Positions 7,772 to 12,157 of a DNA stretch of 53,409 nt are shown here, piece by piece. The notes under the pieces are model-generated. The model was not told the DNA's origin, searched no databases, and worked only from the letters and a program-made list of their open reading frames with translations. The stretch covers positions 1-53,409 of the forward strand of contig JANMUW010000267.1 of NCBI GenBank assembly GCA_031392105.1, in the 5' to 3' direction. Within the stretch, counting starts at the first letter, position 1. Every line of letters begins with the position of its first letter. Position numbers and translations under genes: made by a program. The stretch comes from Acidobacteriota bacterium (GTDB taxonomy: Bacteria > Acidobacteriota > Blastocatellia > Pyrinomonadales > Pyrinomonadaceae).

Positions 7772-8934
7772 ATTTGAAGTTCGACGTCGTCGTCATTGGT
7801 GGCGGAGCAGCCGGTCTTTTCTGTGCGATCGAGGCCGGACGCCGAGGTCGCAGAGTGCTCGTGATCGAGCGGAACGCGCAGGTCGGCCGCAAGATCATCA
7901 TCTCGGGCGGCGGACGGTGTAACTTCACAAATATCCATACTGGACCTGACAATTTTATTTCGGCGAACCCGCACTTCTGCAAGTCAGCGCTAGCCAGATA
8001 CACCCCGGACGATTTCCTGAGGCTGGTAAAGAAACATAAAATTGATTTTTATGAAAAGAAGCTCGGACAGCTATTTTGTCGCGAAAGCTCTCGCGAGATC
8101 GTCGAAATGCTTTTGAGTGAGTGCCGGCGCTCGAAGGTCGACATCCGGACAAGCGCTTCGGTTTCAAAAATCGAACGCCGCGACGTATTCCACCTGGAAA
8201 CATCCTTTGGGCCGGTCTCTTGCACAAGCCTTGTAATCGCGTCCGGTGGACTCTCATTCCCAAAAGTCGGAGCAACCGGTTTCGGTTACGAAATTGCAAA
8301 ACAGTTCGGATTGAAACTTGAACCTACTCGACCTGCACTCGTCCCCTTAATGTTTGAGAAAGACCAGTCAAACGCGAAGCTCGCCGGCATGTCAGTCGAC
8401 TCGGTCGTTTCGACAACGAACGCCAGTTTTCGAGAGAACATTTTATTTACCCATCGCGGATTGTCCGGTCCCGCGATCCTGCAGATCTCGAACTATTGGA
8501 CAAGGCCTGATCCCGTGTCAATCGATCTAATGCCCGAAATCGTGATCGAGGATCTTTTCGAGCACGAAAATCAAGGTCGGCAGACACTGACAACCTTTCT
8601 CAGTCAGTTCCTACCGGCGCGGCTTACAGAAATGTTCCTGCCCAACGAAATGGCGAGAACGCCGTTGCATAGGATTTCCCGGAAGGATCTGGAGGATGTC
8701 GTGTCGAACGCAAAAGAGTGGAAGGTAAGATTTCGGGATTCCGAAGGGTATGACAAAGCCGAAGTGACAATAGGCGGCGTATCGACGGATGAGCTATCAT
8801 CTCAAACAATGGAAGCCACACAGGTGGCCGGGCTTTTCTTTATCGGCGAAGTCGTCGACGTGACCGGCTGGCTTGGGGGATACAATTTCCAATGGGCCTG
8901 GGCTTCGGGATATGCGGCCGGCCAGTCGGTTTAA
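7768..8934 (+). CDS. HI0933/BaiN-like NAD(FAD)-utilising flavoprotein
   Basis: N-terminal FDVVVIGGGAAGLFCAIEAGRRGRRVLVIERN..GRKIIISGGGRCNFTN. The GTG start overlaps the DinB stop (GTGA at 7768-7771). Confidence 0.88.
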   Translation: MNLKFDVVVIGGGAAGLFCAIEAGRRGRRVLVIERNAQVGRKIIISGGGRCNFTNIHTGPDNFISANPHFCKSALARYTPDDFLRLVKKHKIDFYEKKLGQLFCRESSREIVEMLLSECRRSKVDIRTSASVSKIERRDVFHLETSFGPVSCTSLVIASGGLSFPKVGATGFGYEIAKQFGLKLEPTRPALVPLMFEKDQSNAKLAGMSVDSVVSTTNASFRENILFTHRGLSGPAILQISNYWTRPDPVSIDLMPEIVIEDLFEHENQGRQTLTTFLSQFLPARLTEMFLPNEMARTPLHRISRKDLEDVVSNAKEWKVRFRDSEGYDKAEVTIGGVSTDELSSQTMEATQVAGLFFIGEVVDVTGWLGGYNFQWAWASGYAAGQSV

Positions 8935-8994
8935 AAAACGAAAGGGGAAACGTCTCCCACACCGTCTCCCCCCGTTCGAACCGATTGCGTGGAG

Positions 8995-9094
8995 CAATCG
9001 GTAACGAAGCTGGTCTTTAAATCGACCTTTATTTCAAAATTTCTTTACAATCGGTGAACGACCGTGTAGGATATTTACACAATCGTTGAAGGTT
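8995..9094 (+). promoter_or_regulatory. Three direct CAATCG(G/T)T(A/G)AA(C/G)G repeats plus candidate promoter upstream of and overlapping the HTH gene start
   Basis: Copies are at 8995-9009 (CAATCGGTAACGAAG), 9048-9062 (CAATCGGTGAACGAC) and 9080-9094 (CAATCGTTGAAGGTT). An inverted CGATTG at 8981-8986 forms the hairpin ACCGATTGC/GCAATCGGT. A possible promoter is TTTACA (9044-9049), a 17-nt spacer, then TAGGAT (9067-9072). Confidence 0.35.
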
Positions 9095-9523
9095 GTCAAC
9101 ACAAAATACGTGGCGGACGAAAAAAATCTTTTCATTGATCGATTTGTTGAAGTATGCGGGACTTCAGAGGCCGCGAAGATTCAACGATTGTTGGACATTT
9201 CCTACCAGGCCGCTAAGAATTACCTTCAAGGCCGACTGCCTGACTCCTATGTGCTCCGAACCATCGCGGAACGAACGCCATACTCCTTAAACTGGCTCCT
9301 GACGGGTAAGGGTGAAAAGCTGGTCTCGGAACCTGTTCAGGAAGACACACCTCTATCTGCCAGCCAAATTCGCGATTTGATCCGGAGTGAATGTGTGGGA
9401 CTAATCAACGAAGTGTTGGCGAGCCGAGAGTCGACCCGCCAAAAAGTCGTCGTACTACAGTCCGGAAGCTTGAAGTCGGAAAAGGTAAAGGAAGCTTCAA
9501 CCATCCCCGAACACGAAAACTAA
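9086..9523 (+). CDS. Phage CI-type helix-turn-helix protein without S24 domain
   Basis: FIDRFVEVCGTSEAAKIQRLLDISYQAAKNYLQGRLPDSYVLRTIAERTPYSLNWLLTGKGEK resembles the Phage_CI_repr HTH. The start is TTG 9086 or GTG 9110. The C-terminal 65 aa have no recognisable fold. Confidence 0.65.
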   Translation: MKVVNTKYVADEKNLFIDRFVEVCGTSEAAKIQRLLDISYQAAKNYLQGRLPDSYVLRTIAERTPYSLNWLLTGKGEKLVSEPVQEDTPLSASQIRDLIRSECVGLINEVLASRESTRQKVVVLQSGSLKSEKVKEASTIPEHEN

Positions 9524-9541
9524 AGAAACGCTCAGCTTTCT

Positions 9542-9799
9542 TTATAGAATCGTGTCAATATAGTCGGAAATCGAACGCACGGCTGAACCAAAGTAGGCTG
9601 CCAGGCCGCCTCCACCCATTTCGCCGTCCTCTGTTGTCATTGTCACAACAACTTTCCCAGTCCTGCCGTTTTCTCCAGAATCAGCCAGGCCGCCTCCGCC
9701 CATTTCGCCGTCCGCGAAAGCCGCTCCGCAGAATAGTGCGATCAAAACCATTACCTTGAGAGAGTTGTTCCTGATATTTTTCATTGTCTTCGTCTCCAT
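9542..9799 (-). CDS. Small secreted protein with duplicated DGEMGGGGLA motif
   Basis: Sec signal MKNIRNNSLKVMVLIALFCGAAFA followed by DGE. The likely start is ATG 9784, with GGAGA 10 nt upstream. The predicted mature peptide of about 56 aa carries two DGEMGGGGLA copies, encoded by 30-bp direct repeats at 9600-9629 and 9684-9713 (29/30 identical). Confidence 0.55.
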   Translation of the reverse strand: METKTMKNIRNNSLKVMVLIALFCGAAFADGEMGGGGLADSGENGRTGKVVVTMTTEDGEMGGGGLAAYFGSAVRSISDYIDTIL

Positions 9800-9814
9800 T
9801 TTTCTGTTTTTCTA

Positions 9815-9843
9815 TTGATACAAGGGAGTATCGCCGCTATAAT
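9815..9843 (+). promoter_or_regulatory. Near-consensus sigma-70-type promoter for the TPR/S24-like gene
   Basis: TTGATA (9815-9820), a 17-nt spacer, then TATAAT (9838-9843). The first ATG downstream is at 9872. Confidence 0.5.
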
Positions 9844-9871
9844 ACACCCGACAAAACGAATCCCTCAGCCT

Positions 9872-11344
9872 ATGAATCCCCGCCACCCACAGACAGCCCG
9901 CGCTCATAGCGAACTTGTCCGCGAACTATTCGCGTTAGAACGAAGCGGACATTTCGAGCAGGCAATGCTGGAGTTGCGAGGTACTTGGGATGACACAACG
10001 ATTGAGCCAAGTGTTACAGGTTTAGACCCGCGACTTGCCGCGGAAATTTATCTCAGATGCGGCGCGTTGATAGGTTTCCTCGGACACAGCCGGCAAATTC
10101 CTTCGGCACAGGAGAGGTCCAAGAATCTCCTTACTAAAGCCCGCTCTATTTTTCTCGAACTCTATCAACCTGAAAAACTCGCTGAGTGCGAGGACTATCT
10201 TGCGCTCGCCTACTGGCGGACTGGCGAGATCAACGAAGCAGAAAGCTGGATCGAAGAATCCCACGCACACGACATCTCCGACACATGCGACGCTCGCCTT
10301 TACTCGCACGTCATTAAAAATCTCGTCCGGTTGTCACAAAAACGATTTGCGGAGGTATGTGAAAACTTTTCAGCGTTGCGGGAGTCTTTTTTGGAGAATG
10401 CAGATGACTTCCTGATCGGCAATTTCTATATGAATTTCGCAATCGCGGCGAGAAACATTGGCGACATTTCCAGCTCGCAGGACGCTCTGTATCAGGCCCG
10501 GGATTTTTTCGCCAGGGCGGGCAACAACGTTCAGGTCGCAATGGCAGAGAATAATCTTTGTTATCTCTATAAATCGGAGCGAAAATTTGTCGAGGCACAC
10601 AATGCGATCGACCGCGCGACGGACCTGTTCAAGCAGATCGGAGATCGTACGCGTGAGGGTTTCTCCCTGGATTCAAAGGCTCTGATATTTTTGGACGAAG
10701 GTAAGTATGATGAAGCTCTCGACGCGGTGGATCAAGGCATTGCGATTCTTAGGAAGAGTGAGAACTACGGCTACTTGACCGAAACCATTGCCACGAAAGC
10801 AAGGATCCAATTGTTTTCGAACGACTTTTCCACGGCAACGCTTACCCTTCTCGAAGCTGTCGAGCTTGCGAAGGTTCGGATCGGCGAAGAGGCCGCTATG
10901 CGTCTCATCCGCGAATTCGAACAGGCTCTCGACGATCGGAATTCTGGACGCGGCCGTAACCCGGAAGGCGAGCGGTCAGGTCTGGCCGGCGATGATCTGA
11001 AACTGGTTCTTCCGACATCGATTTCGCACTTCGACGATTATCAGGGAATCTGGATAAGCAACTCTGACCTCGAGCCATACGGACTCGCACGCGGGTCGCT
11101 GGCCGTTGTCGTTGATGACAAGGTTCGGCGCGGCGATCTGATCGCCTTGGTCGAATTAAGTACCGACCTCGTAAGTTGCGGATTTTACGATTCTGACTTC
11201 GGGATTGTATGTCTTGAAGCGGGCGGCTCGGAACCGCAGCTGTTCGATAAGTCGGATATAAAGATCCTTGGAAAGATCGTCGGCGTATGCAGGCAAGAGA
11301 AGAACTCTGACGGCACGCTTGACGTGATACCGCTCGAACTTTAA
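9872..11344 (+). CDS. TPR-like repeat protein with C-terminal LexA/CI S24-like beta-barrel domain (probably non-catalytic)
   Basis: The ORF track starts at TTG 9815, but that TTG is the -35 element of a consensus promoter, so ATG 9872 is preferred. The central part is helical repeats (LALAYWRTGEINEAESW, NNLCYLYKSERKFVEAHNAIDRA, ALIFLDEGKYDEALDAVDQG). The last 110 aa or so (..GIWISNSDLEPYGLARGSLAVVVDDKVRRGDLIAL..ILGKIVGVCR) align by eye with the E. coli LexA C-terminal domain. Confidence 0.6.
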   Translation: MNPRHPQTARAHSELVRELFALERSGHFEQAMLELRGTWDDTTIEPSVTGLDPRLAAEIYLRCGALIGFLGHSRQIPSAQERSKNLLTKARSIFLELYQPEKLAECEDYLALAYWRTGEINEAESWIEESHAHDISDTCDARLYSHVIKNLVRLSQKRFAEVCENFSALRESFLENADDFLIGNFYMNFAIAARNIGDISSSQDALYQARDFFARAGNNVQVAMAENNLCYLYKSERKFVEAHNAIDRATDLFKQIGDRTREGFSLDSKALIFLDEGKYDEALDAVDQGIAILRKSENYGYLTETIATKARIQLFSNDFSTATLTLLEAVELAKVRIGEEAAMRLIREFEQALDDRNSGRGRNPEGERSGLAGDDLKLVLPTSISHFDDYQGIWISNSDLEPYGLARGSLAVVVDDKVRRGDLIALVELSTDLVSCGFYDSDFGIVCLEAGGSEPQLFDKSDIKILGKIVGVCRQEKNSDGTLDVIPLEL

Positions 11345-12157
11345 CTAACGGAAAGCCGAGATGTCCATCCCGTAACGCTCCTTTACGTATTCCTCTGCGG
11401 CCTCATTTACATTTTTCAGATTTGCCAGCCTGCGTTCGGATTTTTTGATGAAGCCTTTCGTGCGCTCGGCCATGTGCTTCAACAGGTCCCTGCCTTCGCC
11501 GAACTCCGCATTTATTTTCTCCCGCAGCACAAACAGCTCGGAAAGCTCAGCCTTTGATTTTTCTTCCTTCAATTCCTTCAGCCTGACTTTGATCTGTGCG
11601 ACTTGCCGGATCGCGCGAACAATATCGTCGCCGACCGAATCACCCTTCACAATATCGGGACTGTTCTTGAAATCGTCGACGAGCTTGTTGAGTTGGGCCT
11701 GATCGCCGGCAGAATAGGCTTCGTTTAGTTTCGCCATGAGGCCGTGGCGCTTTTCCTTTTCTTTCGGATCGAGCGCGAGGTCGGGATGAATAATGCGGGC
11801 AAGATTATGATAAGCCTTCTTTGCTTCCGGCGTGGGGTTCCATTTGAATGAGCAAGCCTCGGCGTTCTCACTATTCGCCGCGGATTCTTCAGCCCGACGT
11901 CTAAGCTCATCGGCTTTCTTTTTTATCTCCTCGTCGTCAGGTACGAGCTTGTATTCCTCTTCCGCGATCTGTGCTTCGATCTCGTCCAGATCGGCGTAGA
12001 GCCGGCCGACTTCCATCTTGTATCGCGCTTCGAACTGTTCAAGCTCTCCACGAAGATCGGCCATTTCTTCTTCACGATCGGCAAGCCGGTCCTTCAGGCG
12101 CCCAAGGAGTCTGTGCTTCTTGTTCAACTCATTTTCTTCAGGTGTTAGCTCGATCAT
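11345..12157 (-). CDS. J-domain (DnaJ-like) protein embedded in coiled-coil regions
   Basis: Contains AKKAYHNLARIIHPDLALDPKEKEKRHGLMAKLNEAYSAGD with the HPD tripeptide, flanked by E/K/R-rich heptad-like segments. Its ATG overlaps the stop of the upstream deacetylase gene (ATGA at 12154-12157). Confidence 0.75.
   Translation of the reverse strand: MIELTPEENELNKKHRLLGRLKDRLADREEEMADLRGELEQFEARYKMEVGRLYADLDEIEAQIAEEEYKLVPDDEEIKKKADELRRRAEESAANSENAEACSFKWNPTPEAKKAYHNLARIIHPDLALDPKEKEKRHGLMAKLNEAYSAGDQAQLNKLVDDFKNSPDIVKGDSVGDDIVRAIRQVAQIKVRLKELKEEKSKAELSELFVLREKINAEFGEGRDLLKHMAERTKGFIKKSERRLANLKNVNEAAEEYVKERYGMDISAFR

Follow-up and report, generated by a model that had tools for sequence, protein, structure and literature searches.

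A conserved acidobacterial cassette combining a CI-type HTH protein, a small exported protein, a TPR protein with a LexA-like domain and a candidate structured RNA

The arbitrium system of Bacillus phages (AimR–AimP–aimX) brings together a receptor that is at the same time a transcription factor, a secreted peptide and a non-coding RNA at the lysogeny switch, with AimR carrying the helix-turn-helix (HTH) and tetratricopeptide-repeat (TPR) domains on a single polypeptide. Small RNAs that act on the mRNA of a key regulator, along with opposed and closely spaced promoters, are known from prgX/prgQ of pCF10 (Anti-Q and Qs RNAs) and from the Qrr RNAs of Vibrio. Peptide signalling via cytoplasmic TPR receptors of the RRNPP(A) group (Rap, NprR, PlcR, PrgX, AimR, Rgg/ComR) is regarded as a hallmark of Bacillota and of their phages and plasmids (PMC10075063, PMC12700828), and the tandem pheromone copies of Phr propeptides offer a precedent for repeated motifs and tandem peptide genes (PMC11343458). 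The locus analyzed here belongs to a Pyrinomonadaceae acidobacterium (class Blastocatellia) and lies in contig JANMUW010000267.1 (assembly GCA_031392105.1), of which the whole analyzed stretch of 53,409 bp is referred to below as the window. A preliminary description, made from the sequence of the window, had noted three adjacent genes, encoding a CI-like HTH protein, a small secreted protein with a duplicated motif and a TPR protein with an S24-like end, all three of which are present as open reading frames (ORFs); it had suggested a peptide-sensing switch of which no equivalent with this domain split was known in a Gram-negative lineage. The literature examined places RRNPP(A) systems in Bacillota and the mobile elements of that phylum and nowhere else. 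The description had overlooked a fourth component, a minus-strand structured RNA. The cassette is one conserved, undescribed regulatory unit, and its parts define four uncharacterised families, namely, the TPR-S24-like proteins, the HTH proteins, the small exported proteins (peptides) and the RNA (Table 1).

The likeness of the cassette to the RRNPP(A) systems consists in a cytoplasmic TPR protein adjoining an exported-peptide gene, in repeated copies of the peptide motif, in relatives on mobile-element-like loci and in a proposed output via an HTH regulator. However, the putative receptor has neither an HTH domain nor the Rap-type N-terminal three-helix bundle and ends instead in a catalytically dead S24 domain, the HTH being located on a separate protein; moreover, the host is diderm, and the mature product carries the motif N-terminally, with little diversification. 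Neither sequence nor fold placed the TPR protein within RRNPP(A): Pfam and NCBIfam gave generic TPR matches only, the PDB sequence search gave RapJ (4gyo) at E = 0.036, and the Rap matches found with Foldseek (about E = 1e-5) ranked below the eukaryotic LGN/Pins TPR. With arbitrium, the cassette shares the same set of parts (receptor/regulator, peptide and non-coding RNA) and the occurrence of TPR relatives in integrase- or phage-like loci, whereas its HTH and TPR are separate proteins, the TPR protein has an S24-like domain, the locus is chromosomal and the RNA appears to target the receptor mRNA. Peptide sensing of the RRNPP/arbitrium type by the cassette is plausible.

The conservation of the cassette was assessed by scanning a single genome for each GTDB species, which yielded 59 loci from Pyrinomonadaceae and relatives, with 40–86% identity of the TPR proteins between loci; all named homologues came from metagenome-assembled genomes of Pyrinomonadaceae or Acidobacteriota. 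The peptide gene was divergent from the TPR gene in 57 of the 57 testable loci, and 50 of 54 had the HTH gene upstream of, and co-oriented with, the TPR gene, order and orientation being kept. Since these counts were made over 59 independent species loci, the co-occurrence is above chance. The cassette was kept despite differing flanks, those of the window and L001 being unlike those of L002. Thus, the linkage of the three genes, which had been supposed from a single genome, holds in the same order and orientation across species.

Table 1. Positions of the cassette features in the window.
Feature	Position	Strand	Basis or remarks
Candidate small RNA, ~130 nt	8933..9065	-	5' end ~9065 inferred from promoter geometry
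Hairpin A of the RNA	8975-9008	-	RNAalifold, 67-copy alignment
Hairpin B of the RNA	8944-8971	-	Invariant loop GGUGUGGGAGA at 8953-8962; U-run 8933-8943
Back-to-back promoter/operator region	9044..9099	both	HTH gene (+), RNA (-)
Plus-strand promoter	-35 TTTACA 9044-9049, -10 TAGGAT 9067-9072	+	Spacer 17; promoter scan
Minus-strand promoter	-35 TTGACA 9099->9094, weak -10 TAAATA 9077->9072	-	Conserved -35
Imperfect dyad GAACGACCGTGTA-N7-TACACAATCGTTGAA, 33 bp	9056-9090		Conserved
CI-type HTH protein, 137 aa	9110..9523	+	ORF from TTG 9086 = 145 aa (9086-9523)
Small exported protein, 80 aa	9542..9784	-	Whole ORF 9542-9799; likely start ATG 9784
TPR promoter TTGATA-17-TATAAT	9815..9843	+	11/12 consensus match, promoter scan
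Spacer dyad GATAC / GTATC	9817-9821 / 9828-9832		Inside TPR promoter; same place in ~50 loci
Cytoplasmic TPR protein, 490 aa	9872..11344	+	ATG 9872; TPR 9887-10948, S24-like domain 10997-11341
Candidate pairing site of the RNA loop, TPR mRNA codons 2-7	9876..9892	+	Duplex energy, codon constraint

The start of the TPR protein given in the table was preferred because homologues do not use the start of the 509-residue ORF; the N-terminus is hydrophilic and without a signal peptide. The TPR repeats, which had previously been recognized by eye together with an S24-like beta-barrel, matched Pfam TPR_12 with 41 bits, above the gathering threshold (GA). The AlphaFold2 model built on a 35-sequence alignment (predicted local distance difference test, pLDDT, 86) contained a disordered N-terminus, 17 helices over residues 6–359 with values mostly above 90, a disordered linker (residues 360–375) and a beta domain (residues 376–490), and no HTH was found on this protein by Pfam or in the model. 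A fold search with the whole model returned generic TPR proteins, with LGN/Pins best and Rap proteins after them, while the search of BFVD yielded nothing but generic TPR proteins, besides a few CI repressors. When the C-terminal 119 residues were modelled alone (pLDDT 88.5; predicted template-modelling score 0.81), the 36 best PDB matches were all C-terminal domains of LexA, UmuD' or lambda CI (template-modelling scores of 0.6–0.7, root-mean-square deviation (rmsd) of 1.6–2.2 A; 3k2z, E = 6.7e-5), including 1jhf with an rmsd of 1.6 A over 90 columns. The S24 beta-barrel read by eye is thus borne out. A reading of the C-terminus as a PUA domain (Cbf5, E = 0.27) was rejected, as the fold search returned only S24 domains. 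At the sequence level, LexA 3k2z was the best match of the domain profile among PDB sequences (E = 0.047), and in a library of 1.8 billion proteins the S24-like profile reached a true HTH_3+Peptidase_S24 protein (E = 5.7e-5). The window protein had no match to Pfam Peptidase_S24 (PF00717) at E <= 1, and its relatives P0337 and P0342 scored 20.2 and 16.6 bits, below the GA of 23.3.

The residues that make S24 proteins self-cleaving are missing from this barrel. The register relative to LexA was set by the GL..GSL / GI..GDL motifs together with hhalign, whose alignment of the domain profile with E. coli LexA alone was not significant (E = 0.26) and served for the register only. In this register the position equivalent to LexA Ser119 holds D, H, Y or N, with a variable Ser next to it, and the position of the catalytic Lys156 is an invariant Gly in the alignment to LexA 3k2z; no Ser or Lys is invariant anywhere in the S24-like domain. 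An Ala-Gly or Cys-Gly cleavage site before the barrel is absent in the 35 sequences, in which the segment reads LKLVLP(P/T)SISH(Y/F). The loss of the catalytic Ser-Lys pair excludes autocleavage, and with no Ala-Gly site and no fused DNA-binding domain, RecA-stimulated self-cleavage is not expected either. Consequently, the S24 assignment made earlier stands for the fold and falls for the peptidase: as judged from its sequence and models, the domain is a pseudo-peptidase and a remote homologue of the S24 fold. It shares the beta-barrel and a remote sequence homology with LexA, lambda CI and UmuD but differs from them in the absence of the Ser-Lys dyad, of the Ala-Gly site and of a fused N-terminal DNA-binding domain. 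By analogy with the role of this domain in LexA and CI, it would most plausibly be a module for dimerisation or docking.

The HTH protein had been described with a length of 145 residues, which is that of the ORF from TTG 9086; GTG 9110 is the likely start, since homologues typically have 137 residues, of which about 1–70 form the HTH domain. Although the window protein alone scored 18.6–18.8 bits against Pfam Phage_CI_repr (PF07022), below the GA of 22, this family was matched by 24 of 25 members of the HTH family (best E = 9.7e-10), the family profile found the N-terminal domain of phage 186 CI (2fjr, E = 2.6e-5), and the best PHROG match was the transcriptional repressor phrog_3037 (E = 2.4e-8). 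On this sequence evidence, the assignment to the phage 186/P2 CI type, as had been surmised from the N-terminus, is secure at the family level. Of the profile families named in the preliminary description, therefore, Phage_CI_repr was recovered at the family level and TPR through TPR_12, whereas Peptidase_S24 was not. The C-terminal ~60 residues contain a conserved helix and strand (QIRDLIRSEC..LINEVL...KVVVL...EKV), and searches of the PDB and Pfam returned nothing matching the protein beyond about residue 80, i.e., no detectable relatives of this part. Neither an S24 domain nor a 186 CI-like C-terminal oligomerisation domain was detected in these databases, so that the absence of an S24 domain from the HTH protein, also noted before, is confirmed. 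The C-terminal domain of 186 CI (2fkd) was a weak fold match to the S24-like domain of the TPR protein (E = 0.15, prob 0.99), so that, together with the HTH family, both domain types of a 186-like repressor are present in the cassette. Unlike in phage 186 CI (2fjr, 2fkd), which shares the HTH family, these domains are split onto two proteins in the cassette, with a TPR solenoid of 360 residues before the S24-like domain, the C-terminal 60 residues of the HTH protein are unrelated, and the best fold matches of the barrel are LexA. The 3' ends of the HTH and peptide genes converge with 18 bp between them (9524–9541), inside which an inverted repeat, AAAGAAA..TTTCTTT, was noted; the terminator scan gave no call at this repeat.

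The HTH gene and the RNA have back-to-back promoters, and the dyad at 9056–9090 spans the -10 boxes of both. The arms of the dyad changed together between clades, from AACGACCGTGTA/TACACAATCGTT to AACAATTGTTTA/TACACAGTTGTT. TGTCAA was found in 49 of 53 loci and, read on the minus strand, TTGAC[AT] at a fixed place in 50 of 53; in the clade of the window TTGACA is out of frame with the HTH ORF and is therefore not kept for coding reasons. In many loci a minus-strand -10 box, TAAAAT or TAATAT, follows at a spacer of ~16. The CAATCG repeats mentioned in the preliminary description are real as sequence; they are in fact the arms of this dyad and the stem of hairpin A (8975–9008). The promoter of the TPR gene is likewise conserved across loci in the form TTGATAC-N6-GTATCG-N5-TATA(A/C)T. 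In a few loci the dyad inside its spacer reads GATGC/GCATC or carries A-to-G changes, with G-U pairs on the minus strand only, which hints at an RNA hairpin in the 5' untranslated region (UTR) of the peptide mRNA instead of, or besides, a DNA operator.

In each locus with enough upstream DNA, a minus-strand small ORF was found, with its start ~70–110 bp from the TPR start (further away in a few loci; 88 bp in the window). The ATG at 9784 was chosen from the n-region of the signal peptide and a GGAGA ribosome-binding site, and the Sec-type signal peptide was recognized by visual inspection of its n-, h- and AxA regions. The N-terminus reads MKNIRNNSLKVMVLIALFCGAAFA/DGEMGGGGLA...DGEMGGGGLA..., where the slash marks the putative cleavage site after AFA; the two motif copies are encoded at 9683–9712 and 9599–9628 and are followed by a hydrophobic, amphipathic C-terminus. 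The exported ORF with a duplicated motif reported for the opposite strand is accordingly present, its likely length being 80 residues. At the DNA level, the copies form a direct repeat of 29–30 nt with one base different, suggesting a recent internal duplication. Across the family, the signal has a Lys- or Arg-containing n-region, 12–16 hydrophobic residues as its core and an AxA site (mostly AFA or ALA), directly followed by (D/E)G(D/E/N/Q/T)MG(G/S/N/A)GG in 1–5 copies across species; a Cys pair is frequent (KTCTxNC or CPPPCTENC repeats), and the C-terminus is hydrophobic and amphipathic, e.g., ILxxVQxYLxSIFG. The pN/pS ratio (nonsynonymous to synonymous polymorphism) of 0.24–0.51 in six close loci indicates purifying selection on the small protein and, consequently, a real coding gene; a profile of the family found 190 relatives of 57–138 residues, all acidobacterial and all annotated as hypothetical. 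The conservation of this ORF as a protein, on which the earlier proposal depended, is thereby established. A lipoprotein reading was rejected, as the Cys of LFCG is not conserved, a lipobox is absent and the AFA/D site is conserved.

Between the upstream gene and the HTH promoter, 80–100 nt were conserved nearly base for base, in one to three tandem copies, and the core of this element was detected in 48 of 50 HTH loci; its copies are distributed among loci L001–L061. RNAalifold folded the 67 aligned copies into two hairpins. Pairing holds for 96.7% of the cells in the stems, double changes are seen at 11 of 17 pairs, and compensatory changes occur in both hairpins; in the control, none of 500 shuffles and no slid register came close to this covariation. 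On the minus strand, 96.7% of cells are canonical, including 186 G-U cells, whereas on the plus strand the figure is 81.3%, the same cells becoming A-C mismatches. The RNA was assigned to the minus strand because the G-U cells lie there (186 versus 10), and a plus-strand RNA was rejected on this count. The terminator scan made a minus-strand terminator-like call at 8958..8945. A covariance model found a single copy in the 53 kb of the window (93.5 bits) and none in 13 other loci searched, and the reading of the element as a dispersed repeat (repetitive extragenic palindrome or miniature inverted-repeat transposable element, REP/MITE) was rejected accordingly. Rfam cmscan of 8800–10000 at E <= 1 returned no family at the element (8919–9022), and the weak matches to Moco-II (9695–9724, E = 0.49) and UCA1, both inside coding sequence, were taken as chance. 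Thus, the element is a well-supported candidate for a new structured RNA on the comparative sequence evidence, whatever the answer to the peptide question. It bears no sequence or structural relation to the RNAs of pCF10 or to Qrr, from which it differs in being trans-encoded, in its two hairpins with 1–3 tandem units and in its predicted pairing inside the first TPR codons.

The loop of hairpin B is complementary to positions +5 to +19 of the TPR mRNA, typically (C/U)UCUCCACACACA. The duplex energy with GGUGUGGGAGAC was -13.6 kcal/mol in the window and averaged -12.9 kcal/mol over 58 loci, compared with -7.3 kcal/mol (standard deviation 2.8) for random windows of the same genes. Values of -12 kcal/mol or lower were obtained at +1..+30 of the TPR gene in 72% of loci versus 5.6% of in-gene controls, while in the TPR 5' UTR and in the start regions of the peptide and HTH genes they occurred in none to 2% of loci. 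The codons at the pairing site are fixed, with His as CAC in 24 of 24 cases (background 38%), Thr as ACA in 19 of 22 (background 23%) and Leu as CTC in 13 of 13 (background 22%), the counts for pairing and codons being drawn from related sequences and thus not representing independent events. As the N-terminus of the TPR protein is disordered and its codons are nevertheless fixed, the constraint acts at the nucleotide level, which fits pairing within the first codons.

The S24-like profile collected 106 cluster representatives, nearly all of 440–495 residues with the same architecture, or fragments of it. Stand-alone dead S24-like domains also occur (P0295, P0296 and P0311; 144–147 residues), and in P0313 and P0320 (193–219 residues) two stretches each match the domain profile. 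Distant TPR-S24-like relatives (~27–29% identity) were located in integrase- or phage-like loci beside Xre/Cro-type HTH genes, usually with a mini-ORF bearing a Gly-rich motif adjoining the TPR-S24-like gene. In L065, P0339 directly follows a gene for a CI-like HTH_3 protein of 173 residues, divergent from that of a Cro-like HTH_3 protein of 74 residues, and the locus has PHROG matches. The order in L066 is that of the window (Cro-like, Xre HTH, peptide with ..ILA/DGEMHTGGRSC.., TPR), with the Cro-like gene at the place of the RNA, and the peptide of L067 has a GEQHSGG motif. L063 contains a phage-type integrase, an HTH_17 protein and an AAA_24 ATPase next to P0337, as well as a divergent ORF of 69 residues with a signal peptide and a hydrophobic C-terminus, whereas in L068 a leaderless ORF of 33 residues (MKIGETPGGGFVKNGDTPGGGGFTGKGHSPGGG, 1693–1794) stands directly after the TPR gene and has three GxTPGGG repeats, resembling DGxMGxGG. 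In P0337 (L063) and P0323 (L064), an insert of ~85 residues separates the TPR from the S24-like barrel; in P0337 it matches the Fis-type HTH_8 (24.7 bits, above the GA of 22), while P0323 has no HTH_8 match, the homologous insert being visible in the alignment only, and the window protein has a deletion at this point, just 'IREFEQAL' being left. Owing to this insert and the deletion at the same point, a single CI repressor split onto two proteins, as proposed earlier, is not the simplest history. As far as sequence comparison goes, the proper company of the TPR-S24-like family is Xre/CI-type HTH genes and Gly-rich mini-ORFs, at loci resembling switches, and the Pyrinomonadaceae cassette, which looks like a domesticated version, most likely descends from the CI/Cro-type switch of a mobile element.

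In the window itself, the cassette is not on a temperate phage: it is chromosomal and flanked by housekeeping genes (HI0933-like flavoprotein, DinB_2, PIG-L, MBL fold) that are syntenic in many species. Searches of INPHARED and IMG/VR gave no matches: P0339 and the family alignment, used as patterns against IMG/VR, retrieved no relatives, and tblastn with P0001 and P0339 as queries had no match among 50,697 phage genomes. Some genomes have two complete TPR and peptide loci (OZ244725.1, with L036 and L040; JAJQRF010000002.1, with L042 and L058). Downstream of the TPR gene and converging on it stop codon to stop codon, the opposite strand encodes a coiled-coil protein of 270 residues that matches the J domain weakly (DnaJ, E = 4e-4; 11345–12157, minus strand). 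This gene is syntenic in close relatives (L001) and missing in L002; therefore, it is probably outside the cassette, and it was rejected as a member.

The whole can be accommodated in a working model, a CI/Cro-type switch with a TPR sensor, a peptide ligand and RNA feedback, to which we assign about an even chance. According to this model, a dimer of the CI-type HTH protein would bind the dyad over both -10 boxes and so control its own gene and the divergent small RNA, which, with its two hairpins and terminator, would pair through its G-rich loop with TPR codons 2–7 and tune TPR translation. The cytoplasmic TPR protein, dimerised via its dead LexA-like domain, would act as sensor and as co-regulator contacting the HTH protein, and the DG(D/E)MGxGG motif of the small exported protein, or a fragment released from it, would be the ligand of the TPR domain. 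The signs of these regulatory steps, the passage of the peptide out of the cell and back, and what the switch finally controls are likewise presumptive. Of the peptide-sensing switch first suggested, the conserved unit and the S24 fold have thus been retained and autocleavage and the split-CI history abandoned, while peptide sensing itself is plausible only. A number of findings weigh against the working model and are given below with the alternatives on which they bear; one that concerns the model alone is the minus-strand -10 box of the window, which is weak and was not called by the promoter scan.

In the main rival explanation, the exported protein would be what the cassette puts out and not a signal. 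The HTH protein, the TPR-S24-like protein and the small RNA would then form an intracellular switch responding to another cue, the divergent gene would be among its targets, and the product of this gene would be a small periplasmic or extracellular disulfide-containing protein, e.g., a matrix, adhesion, metal-binding or antimicrobial factor. We regard this as rather unlikely, although several properties of the locus speak for it. The mature product is ~45–65 residues long, with conserved N- and C-termini, often paired Cys and a conserved amphipathic C-terminal helix, so it could be a small folded protein and not a pro-pheromone. Its DGxMGxGG motif varies very little throughout the lineage, unlike the diversifying pheromones of RRNPP systems, and the compact promoter region common to the TPR and peptide genes fits co-regulation. 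Furthermore, export takes the product beyond the inner membrane of a diderm cell, away from the cytoplasmic TPR protein, and no importer was identified, no search having been aimed at Opp-type permeases. On the other hand, the pairing of a mini-ORF with a TPR-S24-like gene survives to ~27–29% identity, in mobile-element-like loci and including the 33-residue leaderless form with little in it besides three motif copies, which is hard to explain for a structural effector. The peptide gene is also duplicated in tandem, as pheromone genes are, two or three paralogues standing beside a single TPR gene in L041 (3407–3920), L042 (2726–3902) and L060 (1133–1668).

A second alternative, which we hold to be unlikely, concerns the non-coding element: it would be a bidirectional terminator combined with a DNA site, its TCTCC(C)ACAC sequence being bound by the same DNA-binding protein as the motif at the TPR start, with no trans-acting RNA. 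Such a shared protein-binding site is possible, as one DNA strand carries both the loop motif and the motif at the TPR start, and in one clade hairpin B has T-runs on both strands. In addition, the CUCCACACA motif persists at the TPR start in the HTH loci that lack the RNA (L002, L042 and L062), and no covariation of loop and target was seen, the rare loop-B variants having, by eye, no compensating change in the target. Nevertheless, a DNA site would account neither for G-U pairs confined to the minus strand (186 versus 10 cells) nor for the compensatory changes in both hairpins. In the tandem arrays, moreover, only the last unit has a U-run, the minus-strand -35 box keeps its fixed place, and for a plain terminator the invariant 13-nt loop would be superfluous.

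It is improbable, in our estimation, that sensing takes place within the cell, with the TPR domain binding the precursor before its export, or motif present in a cytoplasmic pool; the cassette would then report on the expression or export of the peptide, as secretion-coupled or autoregulatory control, and would not serve signalling between cells. This would make a route of re-import unnecessary. TPR proteins are commonly chaperones of small secreted proteins, and a weak NCBIfam match to a SctY chaperone (E = 0.012) points in this direction, as does the motif peptide of L068, which is encoded directly after the TPR gene without a signal sequence. However, every one of the 57 Pyrinomonadaceae-type loci has kept the Sec-type signal with its AxA site, as have L063, L066 and L067, and since a purely cytoplasmic ligand would not need a signal peptide, its retention counts against this explanation. 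Finally, that the genes are mere neighbours, an ordinary autoregulated Xre-type regulator beside a TPR gene and a small ORF with unrelated roles, is very improbable: four loci (L036, L038, L040 and L052) do have peptide and TPR genes without the HTH gene and the RNA, with unrelated genes upstream, and the HTH proteins of L065 and L066 have no homology to the HTH family of the window beyond the generic HTH, but order and orientation are kept in 50 of 54 loci at 40–86% identity and with differing flanks included, the association of TPR-S24-like genes with Xre/CI-type HTH genes recurs in L065, L066 and L068, and complementarity links the RNA beside the HTH gene to the TPR start.

Compared with these alternatives, the working model of a CI/Cro-type switch with a peptide-sensing TPR protein has a wider implication, which we put forward tentatively as a possibility: the cassette may be the first peptide-receptor system with RRNPP/arbitrium logic outside Gram-positive bacteria, a domesticated phage switch in which a small RNA replaces Cro and feeds back on the translation of the receptor. 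The LexA/CI fold has here a new use, as a non-catalytic module on a TPR sensor, and the four families are given with precise coordinates, motifs and testable contacts, including a specific predicted target for the RNA. Acidobacteria are abundant in soil and poorly cultured, hardly any of their regulatory circuits are known, and, if the model is true, a convergent or distantly related version of peptide signalling in these diderm bacteria would widen the expected range of peptide communication.

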